This document shows positions 43,871 through 63,859 of a stretch of DNA of 64,000 bases, piece after piece. Made by a program: the position numbers and the translations under genes. Source of the DNA: Candidatus Doudnabacteria bacterium (GTDB lineage: Bacteria; Patescibacteriota; Doudnabacteria; UBA920); the NCBI GenBank assembly GCA_963768175.1, contig CAVYGQ010000001.1:5908-69907 (forward strand). The letters are read 5' to 3'. Numbering within the stretch: position 1 is the first letter of the stretch; every line of letters starts with the position of its first letter. The notes under the pieces were generated by a model, which worked only from the letters and a program-made list of their open reading frames with translations, did not search any database and was not told the DNA's origin.

Positions 43871-43948
43871 GCAACCAGTAGGACGTAGGGAAGTAGGAAG
43901 GTAGACTAAGCTACTGGCCTACATCCTACCAACCTACGAGCTAAACAT
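43871..43948. repeat. Structured repeat family R3 (GTAGGAAGGTAG...CCTAC...GCTAAAC + ATG), immediately 5' of the rpsG start codon. Other copies at 53088-53166, 59088-59160 and 63196-63268, plus a variant at 58553-58670.
   Basis: Shared tagg/ctac-rich hairpin-forming sequence ending in gctaaa(c/g)(t) + ATG. Confidence 0.6.
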
Positions 43949-44584
43949 ATGCCAAGAAAATCCAGAAGTTACGATAAACATATCCCGGCGCCCGACCCGA
44001 AATACGGCAGCGTAAAATACGCTAAATTTATTAATTATATAATGGAGCGCGGGAAAAAGAACGTGGCGCGCAAGATTTTTTACGATGCCTTGGATATTGT
44101 CGGCGAAAAAGTCGTTGCCGCGCCTGTGGCAGCTCCTGCTCCGGTAAAGCCGGCTATGGAGGTTAAAGGTAAATCAGCCGATAAAAAATCCGTCATTGAA
44201 GCTAAAACGGTTGAAGAAAAGCCGCAAGTCCATGCCGAGGGAAAACAGAAAGCGCAGGACAAAAAGTTGGACGGACGTACGGTTTTTGATATCGCATTAA
44301 AAAACGTGGCGCCGATTATGGAATTAAAATCACGCAGAATCGGCGGCGCCAACTACCAGGTGCCTATGGAAGTGCAGGAACCGCGCAAAACAACCTTGGG
44401 CATGCGCTGGCTTTTGACCGCGGCCAGGAGCAAAAAAGGCATGCGCATGGCCGAGCGTTTGGCCGGCGAGATAATGGATGCTTACAACAAGACCGGCATA
44501 GCCATGAAGAAGCGCGAAGACGTCCACCGCATGGCCGAAGCCAACAAGGCTTTCGCGCATTTTGCGAGGTTTGGCAGGAGATAA
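43949..44584 (+). CDS. rpsG: 30S ribosomal protein S7 with a ~55-aa A/P/K/E-rich low-complexity insertion
   Basis: S7 ends conserved (…[16 protein letters not shown]...[18 protein letters not shown]). The insert [24 protein letters not shown]...QDKKLDG is absent from canonical S7. Confidence 0.9.
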
Positions 44585-44606
44585 AAAATTAAAAATTATT
44601 GAAACT

Positions 44607-46799
44607 ATGTCAAGAGAATATCCTATTGAAGTTACAAGAAATATCGGCATTATCGCCCACATAGATGCCGGCAAAACAACCGTCACCGAAGGCGTTTTGT
44701 ATAACACCGGCATGGTCCACAAAATCGGCGCGGTGCACGAAGGTGATACCGTTACCGACTGGATGGAGCAGGAGCGCGAGCGCGGCATTACCATTACCGC
44801 CGCGGCCGTAACCTGCTATTGGGTGCCAAAATTTATTAAATTGGCTAACGACATTAATCCCGTTAGAAGTCAGACGCCAGGGGCGTCTGCTGGTGCGCGA
44901 GCGCACCAGACTTCTAACGGGATAAAGCATAAAATAAATATTATAGACACTCCCGGCCACGTGGACTTTACCGTGGAAGTGGAGCGGTCTTTGCGCGTGC
45001 TGGACGGCGCGGTGGTCGTGTTTGACGGCAAAATGGGCGTGGAGCCGCAAAGCGAAACCGTGTGGCGCCAGGCTGACAAATACCACGTGCCGCGCATGTG
45101 CTTTATCAACAAAATCAACCAGACCGGCGGAGACTTTTACAAGTCGCTGGACTCAATCCATAAAAGATTATCGCCGAACGCTTTTCCCATCCAGTTGCCC
45201 ATAGGCTTTGAAAAAGACATTTGCGGGGTGGTGGATTTGATAAACATGAAAGCTTACACTTACAAGGATTTTACGGACAAGGAATTTACCGTGGGCGAAG
45301 TTCCGGCCGACATGCTGGAAAAGGCCAAAGAATGGCGCCACAAGCTTTTGGAAAAAGTCGTGGAGAGCGATGACGTAATAATGGAAAAATATTTGTCCGG
45401 ACAGGAGCTAACGGAAACCGAAGTTTTAACGGCTATCCGCAAGGCCGTGCAGGGCGGACAGTTCTTCCCGGTTTTGGGCGGAGACGGCCGGGGCATTATT
45501 GTGCAGACTATTTTGGATGCCGTAACCAACTTTTTGCCGAGCCCGGTAGACCGCGGCAATATCAAAGGCCATGACCTTAAAACTGGTATGGAGATAGAAA
45601 GAAAGCCCAGCGATGACGAGCCTTTTACCGCTTTGGCTTTTAAAATCGCCACCGATGCTTTTGTCGGAAGGTTGTGTTTTTTCCGCGTTTACGCCGGGCA
45701 TTTGGAAGCTGGCTCCTACGTGCTTAACGCGCGAACGGAAAATAAAGAGCGCGTGGGGCGCATTGTGCGCATGAAGGCGGATGAACGCGAAGAAGTCAAG
45801 GAAGTTTTTGCCGGCGATATTTGCGCGCTGGTCGGGCCCAAAGATACTTTTACCGGAGACACTTTGTGCGACGTGGAAAAACCCATTGTCCTGGAAAGAA
45901 TCAAGTTTGCCGAGCCGGTAATCCACATGTCCATTGAGCCCAAGACCAAAGCCGACCAGGAAAAAATGGGCATCGCGCTTTCCAAACTCGCCGAAGAAGA
46001 CCCGACTTTTAAACTTTCCACCAACGAGGAAACCCAGCAGACCATTATTGGCGGGATGGGCGAACTCCATTTGGAAATCATTGTGGACAGGATGAAGCGC
46101 GAATTTAAAGTGGAAGCCAATGTGGGCAAGCCGGAAGTCGCGTATAAAGAAACCATCAAAAAAACGGCCGAAGCCGAAAGCAAATACATCCGCCAAACCG
46201 GCGGCCGCGGGCAATACGGGCATGTTTATTTGCGCGTAGAGCCGCTGCAGCGCGGTAAAGGCTATGAGTTTGTGGATGAAGTTGTCGGCGGCGTTATTCC
46301 CAAAGAATACATTAAGCCGATAGACAAAGGCATCCAGGAAAGCGCGGCTAACGGCGTCATTGCCGGATATCCTTTGGTGGACTTTAGGGCCGCGGTATTC
46401 GATGGTTCCTACCACGAAGTTGACTCTTCGGAAATGGCGTTTAAAATTGCCGCTTCCAAGGGCTTGCAGGACGCGGTCAAAAAAGCCGACCCGGTTATTT
46501 TGGAGCCGATTATGAAGGTAGAAGTTACCACGCCGGAAGTCAATATGGGCGACGTGATTGGGGATTTGAATTCCAAGCGCGCGCAGATAAATGAAATGAC
46601 GGGCAAGTTGCATTTAAAAGTTATTGATGCGATGGTGCCGCTTTCTGAAATGTTTGGTTATGCCACGGCTCTTCGTTCCATGACACAAGGACAAGCTAGC
46701 TACACTATGGAGTTTGACCATTACGCCGAAGTGCCTAGGAACGTCGCGGCCGGGATTATTGAGAGCAGGGCCGGGATTAATGTACGTAAGGGGATGTAA
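44607..46799 (+). CDS. fusA: Elongation factor G, with a 22-codon in-frame palindromic insertion in the G domain
   Basis: [14 protein letters not shown]...DTPGHVDF. Insert 44857-44923 encodes ...[22 protein letters not shown]. Confidence 0.95.
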
Positions 46800-46843
46800 A
46801 CCGCTGAATGAACGCGGATTGCTACGCTGATTAGACGCTGAAT

Positions 46844-46868
46844 AAGGGCGGCCTACGGCCGCCCTTTT
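46844..46868 (+). terminator. Terminator AAGGGCGGCC-tac-GGCCGCCCTTTT after fusA
   Basis: Seen directly in the sequence. Confidence 0.6.
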
Positions 46869-47139
46869 ATATAGTTGTCATTGCGAGGAGCCTCGAGTGC
46901 ATCCGAGAGGCGACGAAGCAATCTTATTTTGTGTCATTCCGGAATTTTGCGGAGCAAAATATCCGGAATCTAGATTCCCGCTTTCGCGGGAATGACATGA
47001 ATATTCTGGAAAAAGAAAAAGCCCGCTGCGCCGTGGAGGTTCGCAGTAGGCAGTTGAGCCGCAGTTCCGTCGGAACCGCCGGGAGGCGGGTGGGGGAAAA
47101 GGGCGCGGATATGTGGCGACCACTCGGGCAGTGTCGGGG

Positions 47140-47274
47140 TTATTGGTATTTCTTTTCCAGGCACCGAACTGCATAACCGATTGCCATCCCCATTGCGAGT
47201 AAGCCCGTGACGGGCCAAGTCAGATTAAGCAGGTAATGGCCGGCCAACAGACCGAGACCCATTATGGCCCACAT
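47140..47274 (-). CDS. Small hydrophobic membrane protein (44 aa)
   Basis: Strong RBS (AAAGGAGGCTGT-ATG) and two predicted TM segments. Confidence 0.35.
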   Translation of the reverse strand: MWAIMGLGLLAGHYLLNLTWPVTGLLAMGMAIGYAVRCLEKKYQ

Positions 47275-47395
47275 ACAGCCTCCTTTCGTGGAACACCAAG
47301 AATAGCAAAGAGACAAGCAGTTGTAAAGGCTTAAGAACAGGGGTATAATCAATAGCAGATATTAGGATATTGATTGATATTAAGATATTAAACAC

Positions 47396-47746
47396 ATGAC
47401 AAATCTAAATGATTTAATTAATCTAGCTAAAGCCGATGGAGGCAAGTTTTTTGTCATTGACGAGAGCGGGGATGCTAAGTTGGTGATAATGAGCGTGGAA
47501 GATTACCAGCGCCTGCTACTCGGCAAGCTCCAGCGCCAGGTAATGGATGTGGAAAGCATCAACAAGGAAATTTTAAAAGCCCAGCTGGAAGAGCAGCCTT
47601 CGTCGCCCGCACCGCAAACCAAAGGCCCGACTGTCGTCAACAGGCCGCAAGTCCATCAACAGCGCAATTCCGTTGATTTGCGCGCGGAAGTTATAGACCC
47701 GAGTTTTGATTTTGAAGGCCCGAAGGTGGAAATAGATGATTTGTAA
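47396..47746 (+). CDS. Phd/YefM-like antitoxin-fold protein with an unusual C-terminal tail (orphan, no toxin adjacent)
   Basis: N-terminal KFFVIDESGDAKLVIMSVEDYQRLL resembles the Phd/YefM fold. Confidence 0.4.
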   Translation: MTNLNDLINLAKADGGKFFVIDESGDAKLVIMSVEDYQRLLLGKLQRQVMDVESINKEILKAQLEEQPSSPAPQTKGPTVVNRPQVHQQRNSVDLRAEVIDPSFDFEGPKVEIDDL

Positions 47747-47898
47747 AACGCTGATTTCACGCTGATAAGGACGCTGAAATTACGCTGATGACAGGCGTGC
47801 CCATTCCGGAATTTTTGATTGAAATAAGATTATCATCGGCAATCAAAAATATCCGGAATCCAGAAACATATACATTATCATCTTAAAATCAAAATAGT

Positions 47899-48195
47899 GT
47901 GCAAGAAAAATTATATTACGTTTACATATTAGCCAACCACAAAAACGGGACTTTGTATACCGGATTTGCAAGCAACCTTGTGCAAAGGACATTTACCCAT
48001 AAAAACGATATTGTTAAAGGTTTTACGCAGAAATATCAAGTTCATCGGCTGATGCATTATGAAGTTTTTGAAGACCGGGACGAAGCCCTAAAACGCGAAA
48101 AACAGCTTAAAAAATGGCATAGAAAATGGAAACTGGAGCTTATTGAAGAAACGAATCCCGATTGGAAAGATCTTTACGATAAAATTGCAGGTTAA
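47899..48195 (+). CDS. GIY-YIG nuclease family protein (UPF0213/YhbQ-like)
   Basis: YYVYILANHKNGTLYTGFASNLVQRTFTH GIY-YIG motif. Confidence 0.7.
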   Translation: MQEKLYYVYILANHKNGTLYTGFASNLVQRTFTHKNDIVKGFTQKYQVHRLMHYEVFEDRDEALKREKQLKKWHRKWKLELIEETNPDWKDLYDKIAG

Positions 48196-48276
48196 ATTAT
48201 TTATTCTGGACCCCGGATATTTTCCAGACGATGAATTGCTTAAACTGAAAAATTCCGGGGTGGAGACACCTGTTTT

Positions 48277-49002
48277 ATGAAAAGGATACTGTTAGCATCA
48301 ATAACAATTTTAACAATTTTTCTTTTAGCCGCCGGATGCTCTAAAACGCAGCCGGCGGTTCAGACTGCGCCGGTAAGCCAAAATCAACCGTCACAAAACC
48401 AGCAGGCAAATCTATCACCGGTTTCCGCGACCACTACCCCACAAAAATCGGCAGCTTCCACTACGCCGCTGACCCTGAATGTTTACAACAATGCCGCGGA
48501 GCATTTTAAGGTTTTATATTTAAGTTATTTTAAACTTTTTACTCCGGCAAGTATAAAAGCAAATAATCCCAAGAGCGTAAATTTTTCCGCCTGCGTGCCG
48601 TATGGAATAATGCCGGGCTGGTGTTTTGTGTTAAATAATCAGCCTTATGCGGATACAAATTTGGAATCGGCGGGAGTAGCGATATCAATCTTAAAAAATA
48701 AAACCGGTATTGCCGATTGCGGGAATTTTAGCGCGCAGGATTTGGAGGGCGGCCATACCACAAGCCCGGTGCAGGCCAACGGCGTGGTTTTTGTTACGGC
48801 CACCGCCTCCGACGCCGGAGCCGGCAATTTTAGCGAAACTCATTTTAACAGGGCATTTTACGGAACAACCTGTTATGAAGTAGATGAAACTGCCAGGTGG
48901 GCTAACGCGGAGGTTTTTGACCCGCCAAGAACGGAGTTTGACCGGACAGATGTTTGGGGCAAGCTGGATGTTTTGAGGAACGGCTTTCAATTTGTTAAAT
49001 AA
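48277..49002 (+). CDS. Lipoprotein (lipobox LAAGCS) with a Q/N-rich linker
   Basis: Signal peptide plus Cys, then TAPVSQNQPSQNQ... Confidence 0.55.
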   Translation: MKRILLASITILTIFLLAAGCSKTQPAVQTAPVSQNQPSQNQQANLSPVSATTTPQKSAASTTPLTLNVYNNAAEHFKVLYLSYFKLFTPASIKANNPKSVNFSACVPYGIMPGWCFVLNNQPYADTNLESAGVAISILKNKTGIADCGNFSAQDLEGGHTTSPVQANGVVFVTATASDAGAGNFSETHFNRAFYGTTCYEVDETARWANAEVFDPPRTEFDRTDVWGKLDVLRNGFQFVK

Positions 49003-49600
49003 TGAAATGAGGAAATATTTTGTTATCGCATCAATTTTCCTTTTAGCCACCGGCTGTGCAAAACAGCCCGTCTTGCCCAGCGCGGGCCGAGGCGGACAAC
49101 CCCTAATTCAGACTGCGCCGATAAGCCAAAACCAACCGGCGCAAAATCAGGCGACATCCACGCCGGATCAAACCGCGACTTCCACTACAATATCGCTTCC
49201 GGTTAAGTATGATAATGCCCAATACGGATTTATTTTTTTTCTGCCCGCCGACTGGCAGGGGTATTCCATTTTGAACAAAACATGGCAAGGCACTCCCGCG
49301 GCTTCCGAAGGCGATGTAAATGCCGTTAAAGTCAGCGGACCTTTAATTTATATCCGCAATCCAAACTGGACAACCAAAAATCCTTATGAAGATATCCCGG
49401 TTGCGGTTTTTACACCGGATCAATGGGATCAAGTCCAAGCAGGACAGCTTGATGTTTACGCCGCCCCGTTCCCGCCATCCGAGCTCGGGCGTAATAAGAA
49501 TTATGTTTTTGGCCTGCCTCCCCGTTATAATTACGATTTTCGTGCAGGATTTGAGGAAGTCGAAAAGATAATGCAGAATAATCCTTTGGTTGGTTATTAA
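48992..49600 (+). CDS. Lipoprotein (lipobox LATGCA), a paralog of the preceding lipoprotein in its N-terminal region
   Basis: Signal peptide plus Cys, then TAPISQNQPAQNQ... Confidence 0.55.
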   Translation: MLNNEMRKYFVIASIFLLATGCAKQPVLPSAGRGGQPLIQTAPISQNQPAQNQATSTPDQTATSTTISLPVKYDNAQYGFIFFLPADWQGYSILNKTWQGTPAASEGDVNAVKVSGPLIYIRNPNWTTKNPYEDIPVAVFTPDQWDQVQAGQLDVYAAPFPPSELGRNKNYVFGLPPRYNYDFRAGFEEVEKIMQNNPLVGY

Positions 49601-49675
49601 TAATCATGGATTTAACCCCATTAGAAGTCAATGCCTAAAGGCATCAGTTGGCGCGATGCGCGCCAGATTTTTAAC

Positions 49676-49705
49676 AGGGTTGACAAATTTGATAAATAAC
49701 TTTAA
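49676..49705 (+). promoter_or_regulatory. Sigma70-like promoter for tuf (TTGACA-17-TAAAAT). The leader carries a copy of the CTTCGCTAAAGCTTCG repeat.
   Basis: Seen directly in the sequence. Confidence 0.5.
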
Positions 49706-49924
49706 AATAAGTTGTAGTTAAAAAATTAATTTTTGCTCTGGATTCCAATACGCCCCTGCTTCGCTTCCCCCTTCGCTAAAGCTTCGGGGGACAAGAAAGC
49801 TTCGCAGGGCAGGGAAAAAAAGAGATAAACCCTTGGTCTTGTGCCAAAGATCGATCAGGCACAGTGCCTAGGGTTTCTCGGGCAAATATCGCCCCCAGAA
49901 TGGGGGAAAAGAAAGGTTAAAACA

Positions 49925-51112: not shown

Positions 51113-51148
51113 AAAGATAAACACGGACTGATAATGGATTAACACGAA

Positions 51149-51184
51149 AAAGGACTGTCCTTGTTTAGGACAGTCCTTTTGGTT
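51149..51184 (+). terminator. Terminator AAAGGACTGTCC-ttgtttagg-ACAGTCCTTTT after tuf
   Basis: Seen directly in the sequence. Confidence 0.6.
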
Positions 51185-51389
51185 ATGTACGTTTGTTTAT
51201 CTGGTTGACTACAACTGCTTAAAACCGCGGCCGCGGTTTTAAGCAGTAACTTCTTCTTTCCACTCGCAAATGTTTGTGGGCGGGAAGAAGGGGACGAACA
51301 AACAGCGTTCGTCCCAAAGTGCATACCCTGAACCGCTAAAGAGCGGTTCAGCCGCTCGGATTGCCCGAGCAGCTCTGCCAGGATTTTGG

Positions 51390-52043
51390 CTATTTGTATA
51401 TGAGGCGTGTCGCCTCTCCCAGAGAGCGGAGGCGGCGCCAGTCAATTGCTACGGGGATTGGTGCGGAGACGGGGTACCATCTCCTCCAGCTCCCTTCTGA
51501 CCGGCAGGCCCAGATGGGACGGGCGAATTTGTCCACGAAAACTACCGTGGAAGATTCCGAGCCGCCGATGCGGGCGACCGCCTCTGCTGGCGGCCGAACG
51601 GCGGTCGTCCCCTTTGCGAAGCAGACTTCCTTCGGTCTGGGGTCGTTCCTGTGGGAGAAACACATCCGCCTTGCCTGTTGCAAGGTGACGTGCTCTTCTC
51701 GCCGTTCGGCCCGGATTTTGGGCAGGGTGCAGCGCTCCCACAGCCGGGTAGCTATCAGGCTCGCCGGGCACGGCCGGATGAGGAACTCCACCCCTCCGAA
51801 CTTCAATGTATGACCGATGTACGATCGGTCCAAACGCATACGGAATAGCGCGTCGACCACATACAGTGGGCCGACGGCCGCGTTGGTGTGATAGCCCTTC
51901 TGTCTTACTTCTTCAAAATCCCCCGGCTTTGGGGGCTCACTGAAGAAGCGGGTATGAATCCCATACCCGATCCCCGAAAGGATCGTGTCCTCCAGGCCGG
52001 CTACTCCAGCCTCGAAGTCCACTAGCAACAACATCTTCGCCAT
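51390..52043 (-). CDS. GC-rich (~60%) hypothetical protein (217 aa), inserted between tuf and rpsJ. Paralog of the frameshifted gene at 36761..37241.
   Basis: Strong RBS (AAGGAGTAAGAAA-ATG) at the MAKM start. Local GC is far above the window average. Hairpin clusters lie 3' of the gene (51270-51360), and an imperfect 24-bp inverted repeat (CTTATAGGGAGCAAACCAATTATC / GATAATCAATTTGTTCCCTATAAG) lies 5' of it (52100-52170). Confidence 0.5.
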   Translation of the reverse strand: MAKMLLLVDFEAGVAGLEDTILSGIGYGIHTRFFSEPPKPGDFEEVRQKGYHTNAAVGPLYVVDALFRMRLDRSYIGHTLKFGGVEFLIRPCPASLIATRLWERCTLPKIRAERREEHVTLQQARRMCFSHRNDPRPKEVCFAKGTTAVRPPAEAVARIGGSESSTVVFVDKFARPIWACRSEGSWRRWYPVSAPIPVAIDWRRLRSLGEATRLIYK

Positions 52044-52526
52044 TTTCTTACTCCTTCCCTTGCCAGTCACCTTGCGCCAGCTGGCGCAAAGCGAAATTCT
52101 GGGCTTATAGGGAGCAAACCAATTATCTTTAAAAGTTAGGATTTAGATAATCAATTTGTTCCCTATAAGAGTTGTTAGGAAAGAAATAAGGCAATCTATT
52201 TTATTTTGTCAAAGAACTAACCGATTGTCTGATGCCTAAATTTAGCTTCTCCACAAGGTCGAAGACTAAATATTTAGCATTCGGCAATACTGGCTCCAAA
52301 ATCTTATTTCAGATTTTGAAGTAATATTATAGCATATATTCAATTTTTTGTCAATACTGCCCATTTCTATTGACAAAAGCTACATCTTACTATAAACTAT
52401 TGCAAGTATGTTATTGTAACGCGGAAGGACGCGGAATTTAACGCGGAACAACGCGGAAGCTATATTTTTATCAATTAATAAGGCAAAAGTCGCCAGTTTT
52501 AGATTTGCGGACAAGGTCTTTAAAAA

Positions 52527-53856: not shown

Positions 53857-53866
53857 CGCCAGGCTT

Positions 53867-53967: not shown

Positions 53968-53989
53968 GGATGACGGAAGTTATGAATCT

Positions 53990-54669: not shown

Positions 54670-54670
54670 A

Positions 54671-54768
54671 ATGACAAAAACGACGGAAATGACAAAAATG
54701 AGCAAAAATAAACTACAGTTCTAATTTTTGTCATTTATTTAATTTTTTTAATTTTTGTTCATTAATTT
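54671..54768. repeat. Repeat family R1 (~97 bp: ATGACAAAAA..GAAATGACAAAAATGAGCAAAAATAAACTACAGTTCTAATTTTTGTCATTTATTTAATTTTTTTAATTTTTGTTCATTAA), immediately 5' of the rplW start. A near-identical copy lies at 61279-61378, 5' of rpsN.
   Basis: Two copies are >90% identical. Each contains the internal inverted repeat ATGACAAAAAT / ATTTTTGTCAT. Confidence 0.75.
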
Positions 54769-55150
54769 TATGGCCATTTTTTCCAAAAAACCAGAAACTG
54801 ACGAGAAGGTTGAATATAAAACGGATGACAAACCTTCCGCTACTGTCGGCAATGGCCCGACAATAAAAATCCCTACCATTTTAATCCAGCCCAGAATTTC
54901 CGAAAAAGCGGGTAGCTTAGCGCAAATGAACAAGTATGTTTTTTTGGTCGCAAAAGCCGCCAATAAAGTAGAGGTCAAAAAAGCGGTGGAAGCGGTTTAT
55001 AAAGTCAAAGTCACGCAAGTTAACGTTATAAATAATTATGGGAAGAAAAGAAATTATGGACAGACAAAAGGCGTAACCTCGGATTTTAAAAAAGCAATAG
55101 TAACACTAAAAGCTGGAGATAAAATAGAAGGGATAACGGAGACTATTTAA
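54769..55150 (+). CDS. rplW: 50S ribosomal protein L23
   Basis: ...VFLVAKAANKVEVKKAVEAVYKVKVTQVNVIN. Start placed at ATGGCC by analogy with the identical repeat/start junction at rpsN. Confidence 0.85.
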
Positions 55151-55246
55151 ATGACAAGAATGACATGATTGAGCAAGAATGACAAGGATCGCTGCAGTCA
55201 AATCATGTCAATCATTTAAATCTTTTAATTCATGTTCAATTAATCT
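55151..55246. repeat. Repeat family R2 (ATGACAAGAATGACA...CTGCAGTTAAATCATGTCAATCATTTAAATCTTTTAATTCATGT), immediately 5' of the rplB start. Other copies at 57775-57868 (5' of rpsC) and 62739-62837 (5' of rplR).
   Basis: Three copies share a >80% identical core ending within ~20 nt of the start codon. Confidence 0.75.
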
Positions 55247-56083
55247 ATGGCGGTAAAACTTTACAAACCAACAAGTGCCGGACGGCGCATCCAAAGTGTG
55301 ACCGATTATTCGGTATTGCGGAAAAAGTACAAAACACCTAAAGGATTAATAGTGAGCAAAGCCAAGCCGGCCGGCCGCAATAATAGCGGCAAGATCACCG
55401 TGCGCCATCAGGGCGGCGGAGCCATCCGCAAAACCAGGATTGTGGATTTTTCCCGGGCCGATAAAAAAGACATTCCGGCAAAAGTTTTGACCATAGAGTA
55501 CGATCCGACCCGCACCGCATTTATATCTTTGGTGTCCTACAAAGACGGCAGTAAGCGTTTTATTTTAACCCCACAGGGCTTGAAAGTCGGCGACAAGGTG
55601 ATGTTTGGGGAAAATGCCGAAATCCTTCCCGGCAACAGGCTAATGTTAAAAAATATTCCGGTCGGCTCTTTTGTTCATGATATTGAATTAATTCCCGGCC
55701 AGGGCGGGAAAATTGCCCGCAGTGCCGGCAATTATGCCATACTCCAGACTGTGGAAGCCGGTTATTCTTTGCTGAAAATGCCGAGCGGCGAGATACGCAA
55801 AGTCCGCGAAACTTGTTTGGCCTCCATTGGCCAGCTCGCCAACGCGGATTGGATGAATGTCAGAATAGGCAAGGCCGGCCGGATGCGGCATATGGGCTGG
55901 CGGCCCACAGTCCGCGGTAAAGTGATGAACCCGGTGGACCACCCGCACGGCGGAGGCGAGGGCCACAACCCGATTGGTATGAAATACCCAAAAACCCCGT
56001 GGGGCAAGCATGCTTTGGGGGTGAAGACGAGGTTAAAGAAAAAGTATAGCAACAGTTTTATAGTTAAACGAAGATCTAAGTAA
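55247..56083 (+). CDS. rplB: 50S ribosomal protein L2
   Basis: [10 protein letters not shown]...[11 protein letters not shown]. Confidence 0.97.
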
Positions 56084-56152
56084 GCAAACAACCAAGGGGC
56101 ATCCTTGGTCTGAGGACTAACTAAGTCAAAGGATGCCCCTTGGGTCAAAGTT

Positions 56153-56773
56153 ATGAAGAAATATTTTCTCCTTACAATCCCATTCCTGTTCCTCGCCGCG
56201 GCCTGCAATAATCAGCAAGCCCAGGTTCAGCCTGTGCAAAATCAGCTGGTGCAGACAGCACAGCAGCAGGTTCAGCCGGTACAACCAGCGCAAGTTCAGT
56301 CACAAGCACAGCAACCACAAGCTGCGCCAACCGATGAAACCGCAAATTGGCAAACCTACACGGATAGCTTTTATAATTTTACTTTTAAGTATCCCAATGG
56401 AATGGTTGCTAACCTATTAAAGTTAAATGGTTCAGTTGCCAATTCGGTGCCAAGTCAATATACAATTAAAATCAACAGACCCAATGACGTTACTACAAAC
56501 GGAGTAACAATTGGCGATGTTTCTGAGGCATTTTTGAATATCAGTGCCGCCCCTGTTAAAGTTACCGGTTCTACGATCAATATTGATAGTCCTTCAGGCC
56601 AAATAGCCGCTACCTACTCCACAGCAACTACCCCGATGGGATATACATATTATGAGTATGACTTTCAAAAAAATGGGAACTATTACTCATTTAGAATGAA
56701 TAACTACGATCCGGTTTTCCTGAGTGCGGCTGATTTCAAAAAAATGGTTGATACCATTAAGTTTGCTAAGTAA
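56153..56773 (+). CDS. Q-rich lipoprotein (lipobox LAAACNN) inserted inside the S10 operon between rplB and rpsS
   Basis: Signal peptide plus Cys followed by [28 protein letters not shown]... It is preceded by the palindrome at 56093-56140 (CCAAGGGGCATCCTT...AAGGATGCCCCTTGG). Confidence 0.6.
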
Positions 56774-56780
56774 TAAATAT

Positions 56781-57113
56781 ATGTCTAGAAGCTCAAAAAA
56801 AGGACCATACGTAGACCCAAGAGTACTCAAGAAAGTAATGGCGGGCAAAGCGGGCAAGACCCAGATTAAGACCTGGTCTCGCGCTTGCAGTATTGCGCCG
56901 GAGTTTGTGGGTTTTACCTTTTTGGTGCATAATGGCAGGACGCACGTGCCGGTTTTTGTGACGGAAAATATGGTTGGCCACAAATTGGGCGAATTTTCCT
57001 TAACCCGTAAGTTCCAGAGGCATGGCGGCAAGATGGCCAAAGAGCAGGAAATGGCCAAAGCCGAAGCCGAGAAGGCAAAGCTGGCCGCGGCAAAAGAACC
57101 GGAAAAAAAATAA
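56781..57113 (+). CDS. rpsS: 30S ribosomal protein S19 with a K/A/E-rich C-terminal extension
   Basis: [18 protein letters not shown]...[23 protein letters not shown]. Confidence 0.92.
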
Positions 57114-57138
57114 GACAAATAGGACCTATTAGACCTAT

Positions 57139-57765
57139 ATGACCAATAAGGCATCAACAACCGAATCAGGAAAGTTAGTCACGGCGCACGCCCGCGATCT
57201 TCATATTGCTCCCAGAAAAATGCGCTTGGTAACTAACTTAGTCAAAAATATGAACGCCTTGGATGCCTTGGTCCAGCTTCAGCATACCGACAAAAAGGCT
57301 TCGCCGATGTTAATTAAGTTAATCCAGTCTGCCGTGGCGAACGCCAAGAATAATTTTTCGCTTGACCCCCAGCATTTGTTTATTAAGGAATTGACCTGTG
57401 ATATGGGCAAAGTAATGAAGCGCTACTTTCCCCGCGCCCGCGGCAGCGCTTTTGAGATTAGGCGCAAAATGAGCCATGTGAACATTGTTTTGGAAGAGCG
57501 CAAGAAAGCCAAAGCCAGCAAGGTCAAGGCTGGATTTCTTACAAAGCCGAAAGCCGAAGAGAAAAAAGTCCAGAATGTAGATCAGCAGGCTGCCGTTAAT
57601 AAAGAACCCTCCTTCGCTCCCGACTTCGCTAAGGCTTCGTCGGGCAAGAAAGCTACGGAGGGCAAAGAAGTCAAAAAGAGCCAGGTGTTTAGGACGGACG
57701 AGCAGAAAAAAATGAGTACCGCGGCAAATAAGAGAAGGCTGTTTAACAGGAAGTCCGGAGAGTAA
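57139..57765 (+). CDS. rplV: 50S ribosomal protein L22 with a ~90-aa K-rich C-terminal extension containing the DFAKASSGKK repeat
   Basis: ARDLHIAPRKMRLV...QSAVANA L22 core. The extension includes EPSFAPDFAKASSGKKATEG (57600-57665). Confidence 0.9.
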   Translation: MTNKASTTESGKLVTAHARDLHIAPRKMRLVTNLVKNMNALDALVQLQHTDKKASPMLIKLIQSAVANAKNNFSLDPQHLFIKELTCDMGKVMKRYFPRARGSAFEIRRKMSHVNIVLEERKKAKASKVKAGFLTKPKAEEKKVQNVDQQAAVNKEPSFAPDFAKASSGKKATEGKEVKKSQVFRTDEQKKMSTAANKRRLFNRKSGE

Positions 57766-57868
57766 AATAATTGACAAAATTGACATGAATGAACAAGAAT
57801 GACAAAAATTTACTGCAGTTAAATCATGTCAATCATTTAAATCTTTTAATTCATGTCCAATCAAACCT

Positions 57869-58552
57869 ATGGGTCATAAGATAAATCCGACATCGTTTAG
57901 AATGAATATTACCGAAGGCTGGAAATCCAGATGGTTTTCCAAGGGGCATTTTTCCAAGCAGCTCATGGAAGACGTAAAAATACGTGAATATTTGGAACTG
58001 CACTTAAAGAAAGCCGGCTTGGTAAGAATTGATATTGAGAGATTAAACGATGGAACAATCACGGTAATCATCAGAACCACCAAACCCGGGTTGATTATTG
58101 GCAAAGGCGGCGCAGGAATTGAGGAATTAAAAAAGAAAGTTAAAACCAAATTGGGAATTAAGCAGGAGCTCAAGATTAATATAGAGGAAGTCCGCGACGT
58201 GAATTTGCAGGCCCAGGTTATTGCCAACGGCATTGCCGAACAGCTGGAAAAGCGCGTGGCTTTCCGCAGGCTGATGAAACAGAGCCTGGAGCAGATTATG
58301 AACGCCGGAGCCAAGGGTGCCAAAGTCGCTATTGGCGGACGGCTAAACGGGGCGGACATTGCCCGCACGGAGCATTTGTCGAACGGCAAAATTCCTCTTC
58401 ACACCCTTCGCGCCGATATCGACTTTGCGAGAGCGACTGCATTTACAACCTACGGCACGGTCGGGATAAAGGTTTGGATTTATAAAGGAGATGTGTTTGA
58501 GGACAAGAAATCCGGCGGTAAGACTAAAGTTATTGAATCGGAGAAAGTTTAG
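57869..58552 (+). CDS. rpsC: 30S ribosomal protein S3
   Basis: MGHKINPTSFR...KH domain... Confidence 0.95.
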   Translation: MGHKINPTSFRMNITEGWKSRWFSKGHFSKQLMEDVKIREYLELHLKKAGLVRIDIERLNDGTITVIIRTTKPGLIIGKGGAGIEELKKKVKTKLGIKQELKINIEEVRDVNLQAQVIANGIAEQLEKRVAFRRLMKQSLEQIMNAGAKGAKVAIGGRLNGADIARTEHLSNGKIPLHTLRADIDFARATAFTTYGTVGIKVWIYKGDVFEDKKSGGKTKVIESEKV

Positions 58553-58670
58553 TAGATATCTGTCTTTACTAACTACTAATCTTTACGAATATACTAAACC
58601 GTGAAGTCAGCATCAGTATATTGGTACCAATTAGTAGTTAGTAAATTAAGTAAGATAATCAAGTATATCT

Positions 58671-59087
58671 ATGTTTATACCGAAAAAATTAAAGCACAGA
58701 AAGCATCATCGCGGGACCACTAAAGGGCAGGCGACGGCCGGCCAGGAAATTGCGTTCGGCCAGTATGCCTTAAAGGCTTTGGAAAGTTCCTGGGTAACGG
58801 CCCGGCAAATTGAAGCCGCCAGGCGCGCCATGACCAGATACGTCCAGCGCGGCGGTAAAATTTGGATTCGCGTGTTTGCCGATAAGCCCGTAACTTTGCA
58901 CGGCAACGAAAGCCCGATGGGCGGCGGAAAAGGCGCGGTGGACCATTTTGTCAGCGTGGTTAAAAAAGGCAAAATATTATTCGAAATGGACGGGGTTACC
59001 AAGGAGCAGGCCCAGGAAGCCATGAGGTTAGCCAGCTACAAGTTACCGGTTAAATCCAGATTTTTAACAAAGGAACATCAAGGGTAG
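58671..59087 (+). CDS. rplP: 50S ribosomal protein L16
   Basis: [15 protein letters not shown]... Confidence 0.95.
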
Positions 59088-59160
59088 GTTAGTAGTATGT
59101 TGTAAGTTGGTAAGCAGCAAGTTACTTACAACTCTACAACTTAGAACTTACAACTTTTTT

Positions 59161-59355
59161 ATGAAGTACAAAGAACTTACAATCAAGACCGAAGCTGAAG
59201 TCAGGCAGCTGCTAATGGAGCTTCGCGAGAAGAGCCACGATTTATCGGTAAAGCTCAAGTTGAACCAGCTTAAAAATACCAAAGAGTTGGGCGCGGTAAA
59301 AAAAGACATCGCGAAGATAATGTTTTACTTGCACTCACGAAAAAGTAAACAATAG
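59161..59355 (+). CDS. rpmC: 50S ribosomal protein L29
   Basis: MKYKELTIKTEAEVRQLLMELREK...; start moved to the ATG at 59161. Confidence 0.8.
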   Translation: MKYKELTIKTEAEVRQLLMELREKSHDLSVKLKLNQLKNTKELGAVKKDIAKIMFYLHSRKSKQ

Positions 59356-59367
59356 CAATCCAGTTTT

Positions 59368-59444
59368 GGCGTCATCCTGAACGCAGTGAAGGATCTTAAA
59401 TATAGAGAAAAGAGATTCTTCGCGTACCGCTTAGGAATGACGCC
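59368..59444. repeat. MITE-like element, GGCGTCATCCTGA family, between rpmC and rpsQ
   Basis: ggcgtcatcctgaacgcagtgaaggatct...ttaggaatgacgcc. Confidence 0.7.
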
Positions 59445-59461
59445 GAAGGGAAAATCAATTT

Positions 59462-59707
59462 ATGGATAAAATTTCAAAAAAACAACAGCTCATCGGCATC
59501 GTCGTGTCTGATAAAATGGATAAGACCGTCGTGGTTAAAGTTGACATGAGAAAGCGCCACCCCAAATATAAGAAAGCTTATACCATTTCCAAAAAATTCA
59601 AGGCGCATGATGAAAACGAAGAGTACAAAATCGGCGACAGGGTGGTTATAGAATCCATTCGGCCGATGAGCAAAGAAAAGAAGTTTAAGGTTATAAGTAA
59701 AGCATAG
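59462..59707 (+). CDS. rpsQ: 30S ribosomal protein S17
   Basis: [16 protein letters not shown]... Confidence 0.95.
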
Positions 59708-59819
59708 ACCGCTGAATGGACGCTGATAGGGACGCTGAAAAAACGCTGAGAGCATAATCTCAGCTCAGCGACATGTCAGCGTAGTAATCAGCGACCAATC
59801 AGCGGAATAAGCAATATAT

Positions 59820-60212
59820 ATGCTACAAGTACGATCCTACATTAAAATAGCGGATAACACCGGCGCGAAAGTCGTCAATGTTTTCAGCGTCAACGGGAAA
59901 AACAGCAACCGGTTTGCCAGGATTGGCGATGTTGTAGCCGGCTCGGTAAGGCAGGTATCGCCGAATGCCAATATAAAAAAAGGCGATAAAGTTTATGCGG
60001 TAATTGTCCGTTTGCGCAAGGAAATAAGGCGCAAGGACGGTTCATACATCCGTTTTGACGAGAATGCCGGCGTGCTTGTAGACAAAGAATCGGGCGAGCC
60101 CAAAGGTACCCGCATTTTCGGCCCCGTCCCCCGGGAAATCCGCGAGAAGGCCAAAGGTAATTACGAAGATGGGTTTAAAAAAATAGTATCATTAGCTCCC
60201 GAGGTCATTTAA
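59820..60212 (+). CDS. rplN: 50S ribosomal protein L14
   Basis: [17 protein letters not shown]... Confidence 0.93.
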
Positions 60213-60225
60213 GAACTACCAGATT

Positions 60226-60298
60226 GGCGTCATCCTGAACGCAGTGAAGGATCTCCTCAAAGGAAAAGAGATTCCTCGCCCCGCTCGGGATGACGTCG
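60226..60298. repeat. MITE-like element, GGCGTCATCCTGA family, between rplN and rplX (near-identical to the copy at 59368-59444)
   Basis: ggcgtcatcctgaacgcagtgaaggatctc...ctcgggatgacgtcg. Confidence 0.7.
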
Positions 60299-60320
60299 AT
60301 GGGGGCAATAAATTTATTAT

Positions 60321-60641
60321 ATGAGCAACAAACTAAAGATTAGAACCGGCGATACCGTCAAGCTGTTGTCCGGCAAGGACAAAGGCAAGACCGGTAAGGT
60401 TATAAAGGTTTTTCCCAAAACGGGCAAGCTCGTGGTTGAAGGTGTAAACTCAAAAACCAGGTTTGAGCGTTCCAAGAAGGCGGGGGACTCCGGAAAGAAA
60501 ATAACCTTTTTTGCTTCACTCTTTGCCTCCAAGGTTATGCTGGTAGATCCGAATTCGGGAAACCCCACCAGGGTTTCATTTACAATTTTAGAAAACGGCA
60601 ACAAACAAAGAATCGGAAAGGACAGCGGAAAAGCTATATAG
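60321..60641 (+). CDS. rplX: 50S ribosomal protein L24
   Basis: KIRTGDTVKLLSGKDKGKTGKV KOW motif. Confidence 0.95.
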   Translation: MSNKLKIRTGDTVKLLSGKDKGKTGKVIKVFPKTGKLVVEGVNSKTRFERSKKAGDSGKKITFFASLFASKVMLVDPNSGNPTRVSFTILENGNKQRIGKDSGKAI

Positions 60642-60742
60642 CTCTACTAAATACTAAAAGGAGCGAAATACGAAATATAGAAAATCCCAAGTTTAGTATT
60701 TAGTTCCCTTTCGTATTTAGTAGAAAAATTTATTTAAATTTT

Positions 60743-61282
60743 ATGGAAAGACTTCAGGAACAATATAATAAGAAAATCGTCCCGGCTTTGAAAGAGAAGT
60801 TTGGTTTTAAGAATATTATGCAGGTGCCAAAAATCCTGAAAGTCGTGGTTAACGCCGGCGTGGGCAAATTTAAGGACGATAAAAAGAAAGTTGACCAGAT
60901 AGTGGAAGACATTAAAAAGATTACCGGGCAGGCGCCCATAAAGGCCAAAGCCAGAAAATCTATTGCCGGTTTTAAAGTCAGGGAAAACCAGGTTGTCGGG
61001 ATTGTCTGCACTTTAAGGGGTTTTAGGATGTATAGCTTCTTGGATAAACTGGTAAACGTGGCTTTACCAAGGGTCCGCGATTTTCAGGGCATTTCACTGG
61101 GCGGTTTTGACGGACGCGGTAATTATCATTTAGGCATTAAGGAGCATCTGGTTTTTCCGGAAATTTCCTCGGAAAGCCTGGAAAACATTTTTGGCCTGGA
61201 AGTATCGGTTGTCACCAACGCGAAGAAAGATGCGACTGCCGGGGAATTATTAACATTAATGGGATTCCCATTCAAGAAATGA
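60743..61282 (+). CDS. rplE: 50S ribosomal protein L5
   Basis: MERLQEQYNKKIVPALKEKFGF... Confidence 0.95.
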   Translation: MERLQEQYNKKIVPALKEKFGFKNIMQVPKILKVVVNAGVGKFKDDKKKVDQIVEDIKKITGQAPIKAKARKSIAGFKVRENQVVGIVCTLRGFRMYSFLDKLVNVALPRVRDFQGISLGGFDGRGNYHLGIKEHLVFPEISSESLENIFGLEVSVVTNAKKDATAGELLTLMGFPFKK

Positions 61283-61378
61283 CAAAAACGATGGAAATGA
61301 CAAAAATGAGCAAAAATAAACTACAGTTCTAATTTTTGTCATTTATTTAATTTTTTTAATTTTTGTTCATTAAACTTT

Positions 61379-61573
61379 ATGGCCACAGAAGCACAAATTG
61401 CAAAAGCAAAACGCAGCAGGATTAATCCGAAGTTTTCCACAAGACTCATCCGGCGCTGTTGGAAATGTGGGCGCAAAGCCGCATATATGAGGGATTTTGA
61501 TATGTGCAGGATTTGTTTTAGGGAGCTGGCTTCCAAGGGAGAAATCCCCGGAATAGTTAAAGCGTCCTGGTAG
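61379..61573 (+). CDS. rpsN: 30S ribosomal protein S14 (type Z, zinc-binding)
   Basis: [25 protein letters not shown]. Confidence 0.93.
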
Positions 61574-61679
61574 AAATAATTTTCAATTCTTAATTTTCAA
61601 TTTTTAAACAATTTTCAATGAATAAATTTTCAATAACTAATATTAAAAATTAGAAATTGAAAATTGAAAATTTTACTCT

Positions 61680-62078
61680 ATGTACACCGATCCTATAGCC
61701 GACATGTTAACCCGCATCCGCAACGCAAGCTTAGCCCAAAAAGCCGAGCTGGTTTTACCGTATTCCAAATTCAAGGCTCGCCTTGCGGAGCTGTTGGTTA
61801 AATCGGGTTTCGTTGCCGGCTGCACTGAGATGCTTTCGGGCGATAACCATAAGTTATTGCAGATTAAATTAAAGTATTCGGGCGCGGGCGAGCCGGTTAT
61901 AGCCGGAATTAAAAGAGTCAGCAAGCCGGGCCAGCGGATATATTTGGCGGCCGACAAGTTGCCCAGGACTAACAGCGGATACGGCGTAACGGTAGTTTCC
62001 ACTTCCAAGGGCTTGATGACGGACAAAGAAGCCCGCAAGTTAAAAGTCGGCGGCGAGGTTGTGTGCCAGGTTTGGTAG
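61680..62078 (+). CDS. rpsH: 30S ribosomal protein S8
   Basis: DPIADMLTRIRNA. Confidence 0.95.
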   Translation: MYTDPIADMLTRIRNASLAQKAELVLPYSKFKARLAELLVKSGFVAGCTEMLSGDNHKLLQIKLKYSGAGEPVIAGIKRVSKPGQRIYLAADKLPRTNSGYGVTVVSTSKGLMTDKEARKLKVGGEVVCQVW

Positions 62079-62179
62079 TATAAATGAAAAGTCCAAAAAC
62101 CAAAATGTTAAATAAATGATTCCGCCAAAGGCGGAAACCTAAATTTTAAACTTTGATATTTACATTTTAATTTTCTTTT

Positions 62180-62734
62180 ATGAGCAGAATAGGGAAAAAA
62201 CCAGTAGCCCTTCCTTCCGGCGTCAAGGCCGAAAAAAAAGATTTAACTTTGACCGTTACCGGTCCCAAAGGGATTTTGGTTTTGTCTTTGCATCCTAAAG
62301 TGGGAGTTACCGTAAGCGAAAAAGAAATTTTGGTTGACGTAAAGAGCAAAGATAACAAGCGCGAAAAAGCCCTGTGGGGACTATTCCGTTCCTTAATCCA
62401 AAATATGGTTGAGGGCGTAACCAAAGGTTTTGAAAAGAAATTGGAAGTTGTGGGTGTGGGCTTTAAGGTTGCCACAACTCCGGGCAAACTGACTTTAAAT
62501 TTGGGTTTTTCCCATCCGATAGTTGTTGAGGTACCGAAAGAGTTGACCATTGCCGTGGATAAAAACACCATCAGCATTTTTGGCGCCGATAAGCAGAAAG
62601 TCGGGCAGTTTGCCGCCGAAGTCCGCGAATTAAAAAAACCCGAGCCATATAAAGGCAAGGGCATTAAATATATAGACGAAGTGATTTTGAGAAAAGCGGG
62701 TAAGGTTGTTAAAGTGGTCGGGGGAGGAAAGTAG
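62180..62734 (+). CDS. rplF: 50S ribosomal protein L6
   Basis: MSRIGKKPVALPSGV. Confidence 0.95.
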   Translation: MSRIGKKPVALPSGVKAEKKDLTLTVTGPKGILVLSLHPKVGVTVSEKEILVDVKSKDNKREKALWGLFRSLIQNMVEGVTKGFEKKLEVVGVGFKVATTPGKLTLNLGFSHPIVVEVPKELTIAVDKNTISIFGADKQKVGQFAAEVRELKKPEPYKGKGIKYIDEVILRKAGKVVKVVGGGK

Positions 62735-62837
62735 AAAAAATTGACAAGATTGACATAATTGAGCAAGAATGACAAGAATGGACTGCAGTTAAATCATGTC
62801 AATTATTTAATTCATTTAAATCTTGATCAATCAAACT

Positions 62838-63191
62838 ATGAACAAGCAAAGGCAAAAAAGAATAAAGCGAGCCATCCGCCATCAAAGGGTAAGGAGCAGG
62901 GTAACGGGGACAGAAGGTAAGCCCAGGCTTTCGGTTTTTAAGGCTAACCGGCATATTTACGCCCAGTTAATAGATGACGGCGCCGGCAAAACATTAGTTT
63001 CCGCTTCCAGTTTGGAAGTTAAATCCAAGGGCAAAAAAAGCGATATTGCCAAAGAAGTGGGCAAGCTGGTCGCATCCAAAGCTTTGGCAAAGAAAATTAA
63101 GGCAGTGAAATTTGACCGCGGCGGTTTTGCGTATCACGGCAGGATTAAAGCCTTGGCGGAAGGCGCCAGGGAAGGCGGATTAGAATTTTAA
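62838..63191 (+). CDS. rplR: 50S ribosomal protein L18
   Basis: [37 protein letters not shown]. Start moved to the ATG at 62838. Confidence 0.92.
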
Positions 63192-63268
63192 ATATTAGGG
63201 GAGTAGGTTAGTAGGAAAGTAGCCAGTAGGCTACTGACCTACCATCCTACCAGCTACAGGGCTAAACT

Positions 63269-63772: not shown

Positions 63773-63859
63773 TTATCCACCAATTCGCGAATCACCACTA
63801 ATCACACTAGACAATTTCGTGGTATTCGTGCAATTAGTGAATTGGTGGGCAAACAATTT

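Follow-up and report, generated by a model that had tools for sequence, protein, structure and literature searches.

REPs were first described as intercistronic elements, and elements of the REPIN/REP-BIME type are mobilised by RAYT tyrosine transposases (PMC3116915, PMC2817692). REP and ERIC elements are known to change the stability of intercistronic mRNA (PMC3184786), differential decay within operons is shaped by structured elements (PMC5927463), and repeat 'deserts' around essential genes have been reported for REP-like repeats (PMC3184786). Here we describe comparable elements in the ribosomal-protein operons of Candidatus Doudnabacteria, based on a stretch of 64,000 nucleotides of contig CAVYGQ010000001.1 (hereafter the window), in which nearly every intercistronic gap of the str, S10 and spc operons is occupied by a repeat. 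Like these elements, REPINs are ~100-nt non-coding extragenic palindromes that fold, as single-stranded DNA or mRNA, into a long hairpin, go without target-site duplication, occur as several families per genome and are often co-transcribed at gene ends, as the Doudnabacteria elements probably are. ERIC/IRU elements of enterobacteria and Correia/NEMIS elements of Neisseria are likewise imperfect palindromes (100-150 bp) that are inserted between operon genes and co-transcribed, that vary in presence between relatives and that can change the stability of flanking cistrons (PMC3184786). We interpret the junction repeats of Doudnabacteria as many families of palindromic, non-coding mobile hairpins resembling REPINs or MITEs (miniature transposable elements with inverted repeats), accompanied by a few ordinary G+C-rich MITEs and tolerated within the ribosomal operons. 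We assign this interpretation a probability of roughly 0.55 and propose the name tandem-unit hairpins for the elements.

On the + strand of the window, position 43457 to the end, rpsL-rpsG-fusA come first and are separated from tuf by some 3 kb with unrelated genes; next come the region of a minus-strand open reading frame (ORF) and finally rpsJ through rplO. Stop-to-ATG lengths were taken directly from the sequence and the spacers were then folded. At 19 of the 22 str/S10/spc junctions the spacer measures at least 69 nt (range 69-316 nt, Table 1); rpsG/fusA (22 nt), orf206/rpsS (7 nt) and rpsS/rplV (25 nt) are short. Almost all of the long spacers are made up of one long hairpin, which is imperfect and dominates the fold in most cases, and branched folds were obtained for rpsJ/rplC and rplC/rplD. 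Taken together, ~2 kb of hairpin repeats reside within the ribosomal operon of the window. A previous interpretation of the window made from its letters alone (hereafter the sequence-only reading) had stated that a repeat is present at nearly every S10-spc junction, and in this it was right.

A scan with RplB yielded 80 loci, the best of which stem from metagenome-assembled genomes of Candidatus Doudnabacteria (96-63% RplB identity). The ribosomal proteins of the window were mapped onto the fetched loci, numbered L001 and so forth, and every junction was measured. These comparative data consist of 20-kb slices around rplB in which gene calls outside the ribosomal genes are crude, and statements on genome-wide distribution are extrapolated from the window and the flanks. 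In 66 Doudnabacteria loci including the window, the lengths of 950 junction spacers are bimodal, with one class of 0-40 nt and another of 70-110 nt. When spacers of at least 55 nt are counted as filled, an expanded clade of 23 genomes, to which the window belongs, has 282 of 313 junctions filled (90%), as compared to 37% in an intermediate Doudnabacteria group and 11% in the remaining, more distant Doudnabacteria. Sister Doudnabacteria operate with junctions of 1-20 nt. Short junctions, almost none of them filled, are also the rule in five loci from other members of the candidate phyla radiation (CPR) and in nine non-CPR loci, mostly from Clostridia. We found no published description of such repeats in Doudnabacteria or other CPR bacteria.

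The elements, 60-130 nt in length, follow a common plan: the stop codon is followed by ~3 nt, three to five tandem units of 7-11 nt, a short loop (3-6 nt), the complementary units, ~10 AU-rich nt and the ATG. The sequence-only reading had captured this plan in part. Examples of units are TGACAAnAA, GTAGG, ACGCTGA, ATTTTCAAT, CTAAATAC and TACGAA. Unit copy number is variable, with eight units in an element of L010, and the unit period spans 7-14 nt without fixed helical phasing. Among 372 long spacers 91% fold into a single unbranched hairpin (median z score -4.1 relative to shuffles). An arm periodicity of at least 0.6 is seen for 38% of long spacers vs 3.6% of shuffles, periods of 7-10 nt being preferred, and in 76% of the long spacers the more purine-rich arm is the 5' arm. 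In the 271 best hairpins the median distance is 3 nt from the stop to the stem and 10 nt from the stem to the ATG, and the folded elements leave a median of 15 nt unpaired (interquartile range 10-23, 80% AT), as compared to a median of 13 nt for empty junctions (interquartile range 5-22, 80% AT). Fewer than 3 unpaired nt precede the ATG in only 14 of these 271 hairpins; the start codon is almost never sequestered. Perfect palindrome centres were considered as a mark of fold-back synthesis and discarded as such, as self-complementary centres occur in 15 of 113 short even loops, a modest excess of about twice the expectation.

The repeats end just before the ATG because a self-pairing module of ~77 nt sits just after the stop in an ordinary short junction. 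The sequence-only reading had held that the repeats provide the translation-initiation region; this fails, given that filled and empty junctions offer practically the same AT-rich unpaired stretch. The missing Shine-Dalgarno sequence had been noted correctly but is no special trait of the repeats, since throughout the genome Shine-Dalgarno-like motifs are missing before most genes, ribosomal or not, and AU-rich sequence precedes the start codons. We envisage that the elements proliferated in Candidatus Doudnabacteria and, in one clade, came to fill nearly every str-S10-spc gap, each module lodging in an ordinary junction, short and AU-rich, at ~3 nt from the stop. Transcribed within the polycistronic mRNA, the module would fold on itself, leave ~10 unpaired AU-rich nt before the ATG and bring back the original stop-start spacing of ~15 nt; initiation without Shine-Dalgarno sequence, or re-initiation, could therefore still work. 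Insertions would be tolerated because both the AU-rich initiation region and the stop-start spacing remain intact.

Mobility and turnover are evident from the comparison of families. BLAST clustering of 389 long spacers, a census that depends on BLAST detectability, gave 167 clusters, 123 of which are singletons; multi-copy families number at least 40. With 41 copies each, the two largest of these are spread over 15 genomes and 14-15 different junctions. Near-identical copies occupy different junctions of one genome (99% identity for the R1 family of the window, further pairs in L001 and L004), and a junction that is filled in one genome can be empty in a relative, e.g. rplW/rplB, which reads TAA TAAT ATG in L005 and holds 96 nt in the window. 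An identity of at least 70% is reached by 2.8% of same-junction spacer pairs between genomes vs 1.1% of different-junction controls, so that orthologous junctions usually hold unrelated elements; the sequences show no relationship in 97% of the junction pairs that are orthologous between genomes. Four-fold sites are saturated even between the closest loci (identity 0.50-0.56). Truncated elements, half-copies and orphan one-arm arrays are found as well. The terminal inverted repeats of R2 (ATTGACAAG... and ...CTTGTTCAAT) are discrete and conserved, and in the hairpin families whole arms are inverted. The elements thus share three traits with MITEs: they are small, non-coding and multi-copy, they have terminal inverted repeats and they show insertion polymorphism between related genomes. 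A metagenome scan with a 17-mer from R2 returned 5-6 true copies among the 80 matches listed, the rest being mostly due to chance. In this small sample of contexts, copies reside after dnaK (sense), at ctpA-like/alaS (antisense), after a GH1 gene (antisense), at the ruvA start (antisense) and at rpsN/rpsH (sense). A survey of 6-mers by cluster detected no motif common to all families, ACTGCA near the apex being only ~2-fold enriched (11 clusters vs 5 in shuffles). An analogy to integron attC sites was rejected, as gene order is conserved and the genes are accordingly not cassettes.

In the window itself, R1 (family D11) is represented by two copies (54669-54765 and 61277-61373) with 99% identity across 97 nt, and the inverted pair ATGACAAAAAT/ATTTTTGTCAT lies at 54689-54699 and 54724-54734. 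R2 (family D5) has three copies starting at 55144, 57765 and 62735 with 62-85% identity, and a fourth, degenerate one is located outside the operon. The sequence-only reading had recognized these two families, their internal inverted repeats and MITEs before rplD, rpsQ and rplX, all of which we can confirm, the latter as GGCGTCATCCTGA-type elements (family D13). Its third family, R3, is a loose group: the copies at 43871-43948, 53088-53166 and 63196-63268 indeed have GTAGG/CCTAC units in common, with a column identity of ~71% over four aligned copies, but the element at 59088-59160 is built from a different unit (TTGTAAG) and the supposed variant at 58553-58670 is a member of a separate TACTAA/TACGAA family. 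GGCGTCATCCTGA-type MITEs, unlike the tandem-unit hairpins, are scattered over the whole window. Further GGCGTCATCCTGA...GGATGACGCC copies are present at 18509-18600, 25881-25925 and 32509-32540 (D13/D17/D19), and diverged or partial ones near 11894 and 15152. Palindromes at 46878-46995 (GTCATTGCGAG...CGAAGCAATC and GTCATTCCGGAAT) are related to these MITEs.

The tandem-unit hairpins are concentrated in ribosomal operons. In the loci of the clade and the window, a stop-anchored long hairpin follows 137 of 271 S10-spc ORFs vs 14 of 92 ORFs elsewhere (odds ratio 5.7, p = 9e-10), and if a periodic arm is demanded the counts are 62 of 271 vs 1 of 92 (odds ratio 27). Homologues beyond the S10-spc span are mostly found at rpsE/rplO, at rplO/secY and in the str operon. 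The 42 kb of non-ribosomal sequence in the window contain a single clear tandem-unit hairpin (29823-29926), along with one copy of R2 that has decayed (40428-40535). This bias could arise by strongly preferential insertion, e.g. into the single-stranded DNA of a heavily transcribed operon that is co-directional with replication (GC skew is positive over the whole window), or by host selection for a hairpin at each junction.

Are the hairpins maintained as RNA structures? The 5' arm of each element was aligned to the reverse complement of the 3' arm with a scoring blind to wobble, which gave 9093 Watson-Crick pairs, 427 G·U pairs and 679 A·C mismatches. The excess of A·C over G·U is the opposite of what is expected for a selected sense-strand RNA helix. 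In addition, the antisense strand folds more stably in 244 and the sense strand in 125 of 369 untied cases (means -26.2 vs -24.0 kcal/mol, p = 5e-15). Selection for sense-strand RNA structure was rejected, as both types of evidence point the wrong way. For R1/R2, RNAalifold found no consensus pairs in 22 copies, and a structure named by hand showed no covariation beyond shuffles; the family is conserved in sequence, has short inverted ends and occupies five window junctions with weak folds (z -1.3 to -2.8). The TACTAA/TACGAA family has a 21-pair consensus hairpin with 95.5% of cells paired and a covariation score above all 500 shuffles, the score resting on three pairs that covary between subfamilies, as DNA-level inverted repeats would also bring about. 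In several copies of this family (L004 rplP/rpmC, L020, L022 and window 58553-58670) all 3'-arm units read TTAGTA and the 5'-arm units still read TACGAA, which places G opposite A in each unit; units of one arm therefore change in concert. Conservation of structure or sequence at orthologous positions is absent as a rule, a few elements with 83-93% identity being the exceptions. The proposal of the sequence-only reading that the repeats are conserved structured RNA signals is thus not sustained. An Rfam search over the 64 kb returned only three tRNAs at gathering score.

Promoter or terminator function was considered and rejected. The TTGACA units of R2 raise the number of promoter-like matches (33 vs 18.4 ± 5.1 in shuffles) without good -10 boxes and merely mimic -35 boxes, and no terminator-like sites were detected between genes on the + strand in 52000-64000, which fits read-through transcription. 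Coding of small peptides in the manner of MIRUs was dismissed likewise, as the elements contain no consistent ORF and their units of 7-11 nt form inverted arrays.

Several findings weigh against mobile hairpins that are simply tolerated. Filled and empty sites did not reveal a direct repeat, though the AT-rich palindromic ends could conceal a TA/TAA copy, and a Pfam scan of 10 window ORFs found no transposase (Y1/RAYT included); a sequence-specific transposase for each of at least 40 multi-copy families (167 BLAST clusters) is implausible. Ribosomal occupancy of 90% vs near absence elsewhere is the reverse of the repeat deserts mentioned above and calls for very strong insertion bias or positive selection. 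Homologous copies within operons have the same orientation in 645 pairs vs 54 (92% uniform) which, together with the uneven distribution over intergenic DNA (odds ratio 5.7-27), bears out the sequence-only reading in its view that the repeats are systematic rather than random litter. Furthermore, a minority of orthologous elements are 83-93% identical next to coding DNA of 77-80% identity with four-fold sites at 0.50, and such conservation beside saturated sites is not predicted by neutral in-place decay. Examples are rplC/rplD and rplV/rpsC in L004 and L018, where the spacers are 92-93% identical and the flanking 150 nt of coding sequence 77-80% (four-fold sites 0.50); at rplC/rplD full identity extends into the genes on both sides, over the last 17 nt of one and the first 28 nt of the other. 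Recent recombination patches are conceivable as the origin of the conserved elements but not supported: synonymous divergence of the flanking genes is uniformly saturated, and in one case identical tracts adjoin the element, which are only short. Finally, the arms of the TACTAA/TACGAA family stay complementary through double changes as the family diversifies.

Alternatively, the host may have selected the hairpins as cis-acting RNA modules, possibly domesticated mobile repeats, with the presence of a hairpin and not its sequence under selection. This main rival, which overlaps with mobile hairpins because mobile elements can be domesticated, appears possible to us though not probable. A hairpin at each cistron end of the long and strongly expressed ribosomal mRNA could block 3'-to-5' exonucleases, be a double-strand-specific processing site or insulate initiation regions, and the influence of REP and ERIC elements on mRNA stability (PMC3184786) and of structure on decay within operons (PMC5927463) provides precedent. 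Maintenance of 90% occupancy over 23 genomes despite family turnover, the enrichment over other operons, the uniform orientation with a purine-rich 5' arm, the rarely sequestered start codon, the few orthologous elements conserved better than the adjoining coding DNA and the double changes in one family are all in line with such selection. It is difficult to reconcile with the sense strand folding worse than the antisense strand, with A·C mismatches outnumbering G·U pairs, with R1/R2 lacking a consensus fold at five window junctions, with sister Doudnabacteria managing on 1-20 nt, with copies at unrelated genes in both orientations and with the existence of decayed and half copies. In a stricter version, which we consider unlikely, an intercistronic hairpin has become a requirement for ribosomal-operon expression in the clade and the mobile hairpins serve as interchangeable raw material. 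With translation working without Shine-Dalgarno sequences, the hairpin would then hold the stop and the next start ~15 nt apart in space such that the terminating ribosome is handed across as in shunting or bypassing; alternatively, it might be cut or stall decay and thus convert the ~15-kb transcript into stable single-gene units. Such a requirement would explain 90% occupancy with family turnover, uniform orientation and the occasional strong conservation in place.

It is also conceivable, but quite improbable in our view, that the elements originate and change on the spot in a heavily transcribed operon, where slippage of short units during replication would combine with fold-back or template switching, with occasional microhomology-mediated copying between junctions and no transposition. 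The concerted change of units within an arm, the 123 singleton clusters that still fold well, the varying unit number, the lack of both a target-site duplication and a transposase among the scanned ORFs and the twofold excess of self-complementary centres would agree with this. Families shared by different junctions of genomes with saturated synonymous sites, copies at distant non-ribosomal loci in metagenomes and discrete conserved termini such as those of R2 speak against it. Least of all do we expect that a nucleoid or regulatory protein acts on the ribosomal operon by binding the unit arrays as double-stranded DNA, in the manner of iterons or heptad arrays, with an incidental hairpin potential. 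The direct-then-inverted arrays of 7-11-bp units would suit such sites, as would orphan direct arrays without complementary arm, one of them just downstream of the predicted S10 promoter, and a palindromy that is DNA-symmetric without bias to the sense-strand RNA. However, one operon contains dozens of unrelated unit sequences, the period varies over 7-14 nt without helical phasing and the families have no motif in common. CPR genomes typically comprise ~1 Mb, and a genome of this size cannot encode a reader protein per family. We therefore adhere to mobile tandem-unit hairpins as an explanation for the junction repeats and add that some of the elements may have been taken over by the host.

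Table 1. Tandem-unit hairpins, MITEs and related elements in the window (all on the + strand; stop-to-ATG length of the respective junction in nt; energies in kcal/mol).
Element	Position	Site	Stop-to-ATG	Remarks
Tandem-unit hairpin, ACGGATC units	29823-29926	986-aa ORF/Sua5/YrdC-family gene		Exact fill of a non-ribosomal junction; -49.5
Degenerate R2-like copy	40428-40535	After 564-aa ORF, beside convergent gene		Not a stop-to-start junction
Tandem-unit hairpin, R3, GTAGG/CCTAC	43871-43948	rpsL/rpsG	78	Fills rpsL stop to rpsG ATG; -29.9, z -5.3; unit arrays 43878-43893 and 43910-43933
Orphan 5'-type array, CGCTGA-like units (D15)	46800-46841	Directly after fusA stop		Followed by terminator-like G+C-rich hairpin and T-run
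Orphan array, 4 x ACGCTGA (D15)	47747-47790	Directly after stop of 116-aa ORF		No complementary arm
Orphan array, 4 x ACGCGGAA	52419-52460	Presumed leader, just downstream of predicted S10 promoter 52370-52398		Full hairpins of this family present in L004
Tandem-unit hairpin, R3, GTAGC/GCTAC	53088-53166	rpsJ/rplC	316	Inside spacer; ends 4-5 nt before rplC ATG
GGCGTCATCCTGA...GGAATGACGCC MITE	53857-53989	rplC/rplD	133	
R1 copy, TGACAAAAA units	54670-54769	rplD/rplW	100	Weak fold, z -1.8
R2 copy, ATGACAAGA units	55151-55246	rplW/rplB	96	Family ends ATTGACAAG.../...CTTGTTCAAT from family alignment
Simple G+C-rich hairpin CCAAGGGGCATCCTTGG...	56084-56152	rplB/206-aa ORF (orf206)	69	-34.3, z -6.3; related palindrome 40723-40763
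R2 copy	57766-57868	rplV/rpsC	103	Same family at rplV/rpsC in L003, L006, L008, L023, L024
Tandem-unit hairpin, TACTAA/TACGAA family	58553-58670	rpsC/rplP	118	-34.4, z -7.1
Tandem-unit hairpin, TTGTAAG/CTTACAA	59088-59160	rplP/rpmC	73	
GGCGTCATCCTGA MITE	59356-59461	rpmC/rpsQ	106	L001 has an orthologous copy (85% identity), L002 and L004 an empty site
Tandem-unit hairpin, 4 x ACGCTGA / 4 x TCAGCG	59708-59819	rpsQ/rplN	112	-51.3, z -8.1; 83% identity to L002 copy at same junction
GGCGTCATCCTGA MITE (D13)	60213-60320	rplN/rplX	108	Different element in L001; empty site in L005
Tandem-unit hairpin, CTAAATAC/TACGAAA units	60642-60742	rplX/rplE	101	z -4.4
R1 copy	61277-61378	rplE/rpsN	96	rplE TGA stop codon comes from the element
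Tandem-unit hairpin, ATTTTCAAT/ATTGAAAAT units	61574-61679	rpsN/rpsH	106	z -5.8; family also in L014, L022, L026
AT-rich spacer, small TTCCGCCAAAGGCGGAA palindrome	62079-62179	rpsH/rplF	101	z -1.6; no clear tandem-unit hairpin
R2 copy	62735-62837	rplF/rplR	103	Same family at rplF/rplR in L003 and L018 (84% identity)
Tandem-unit hairpin, R3, GTAGG/CCTAC	63192-63268	rplR/rpsE	77	z -5.6
Hairpin, CACCAAT/CACTAAT units	63773-63860	rpsE/rplO	88	z -3.8; homologous to rpsL/rpsG element of L004

In the element at 60642-60742, the order of the two unit variants would allow a perfect crossed, non-nested pairing. The gene layout of the window has further peculiarities. The str operon is broken up by ~3 kb between fusA and tuf (46800-49840) that harbor two lipoprotein-like ORFs, an ORF of 116 aa and a gene for a GIY-YIG nuclease (47899-48195). 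The interval between tuf and rpsJ (51113-52526) contains a minus-strand ORF of 226 aa (51390-52070) with higher G+C content and without Pfam match. It is followed upstream of rpsJ (52326-52398) by back-to-back consensus promoters, TTGACA-17-TATAAT with a TG extension on the minus and TTGACA-17-TAAACT on the plus strand, after which the 4 x ACGCGGAA array begins. The 206-aa ORF inserted between rplB and rpsS (56153-56773) has a lipoprotein-like N-terminus and no Pfam match; the rplB-rpsS junctions of L001 and L014 also carry insertions, of 1.1 kb and 4 kb, respectively. Relative to L002, rplD lacks 1 nt at 54255-54262 (TTTTGG-CCCC vs TTTTGGTCCCC) and for this reason falls into two frames (53990-54286 and 54232-54669), which may reflect a frameshift site, a pseudogene or a mistake in the assembly. 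Short G+C-rich palindromes (e.g. GGCGGATCCGCC and CGACTTCGCTAAAGCTTCGTCG) are situated in frame inside the conserved genes fusA (44860-44925), rplD (54434-54473) and rplV (57616-57648) and recall the Rickettsia palindromic elements, which insert into ORFs; palindrome family D2 is also found at 16628, 24481, 26696, 35230, 35434, 39096 and 49763. At the other end of the window (1-8082), an ORF of 1864 aa (2488-8082) and its upstream region consist of diverged repeats with periods of 123 and 255 nt and have a G+C content of 0.52-0.55, above that of the rest of the window.

In bacterial genomes it is normally the ribosomal-protein operons that are most compact and most free of repeats, and CPR bacteria are known for small, streamlined genomes. 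Here a whole clade keeps ~90% of these junctions filled under continuing turnover of the sequences. Should the elements be purely selfish, their insertion mechanism would have to be aimed at highly transcribed or highly conserved DNA, and cistron-to-cistron translation without Shine-Dalgarno sequences would have to cope with 77 nt of hairpin at each junction. If the host makes use of the elements, they would constitute a natural system for initiation at internal cistrons or for processing of polycistronic mRNA in bacteria without Shine-Dalgarno pairing. In practical terms, the repeats will disturb gene calling because spurious TTG and GTG starts appear inside the hairpins, they may break assemblies, and they could help to tell strains apart in the marker-gene regions on which CPR phylogeny draws.

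A REPIN consists of two inverted single REPs plus a spacer, whereas each arm of the Doudnabacteria elements is formed by three to five tandem units of 7-11 nt. The latter are AT-rich instead of G+C-rich, come in dozens of families in one operon, have no RAYT gene among the 10 Pfam-scanned ORFs of the window and are concentrated in ribosomal-protein operons, whereas REPINs are dispersed through extragenic space. ERIC and Correia elements have defined terminal inverted repeats and a TA duplication and form one or few families per genome (PMC3184786). In contrast, the elements described here have no visible duplication, belong to many families, possess tandem-unit arms and saturate one operon system. 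The MIRUs of Mycobacterium are intercistronic operon repeats as well, lie in one orientation relative to transcription and abut the upstream stop and the downstream start, but they are direct tandem units of 40-100 bp with small coupled ORFs. The Doudnabacteria units comprise only 7-11 nt, form an inverted pair of arrays and lack a consistent small ORF. BrickBuilt of Porphyromonas gingivalis is similar in being a small non-autonomous MITE whose body is an array of short tandem units with inverted ends; its units of 23 nt are, however, exclusively direct, it resides 49-591 nt from genes and carries promoters, and it is neither a hairpin nor intercistronic (PMC4596501). The TAACTGA repeats of Beggiatoaceae and cyanobacteria differ in that one fixed heptamer, proposed as the binding site of a post-transcriptional regulator, forms contiguous direct repeats without an inverted arm (PMC4679880). 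None of the systems compared, be it REPIN/REP, ERIC/Correia, MIRU, BrickBuilt or TAACTGA repeats, unites arms made of tandem units with dozens of families and with ribosomal-protein junctions that are saturated.

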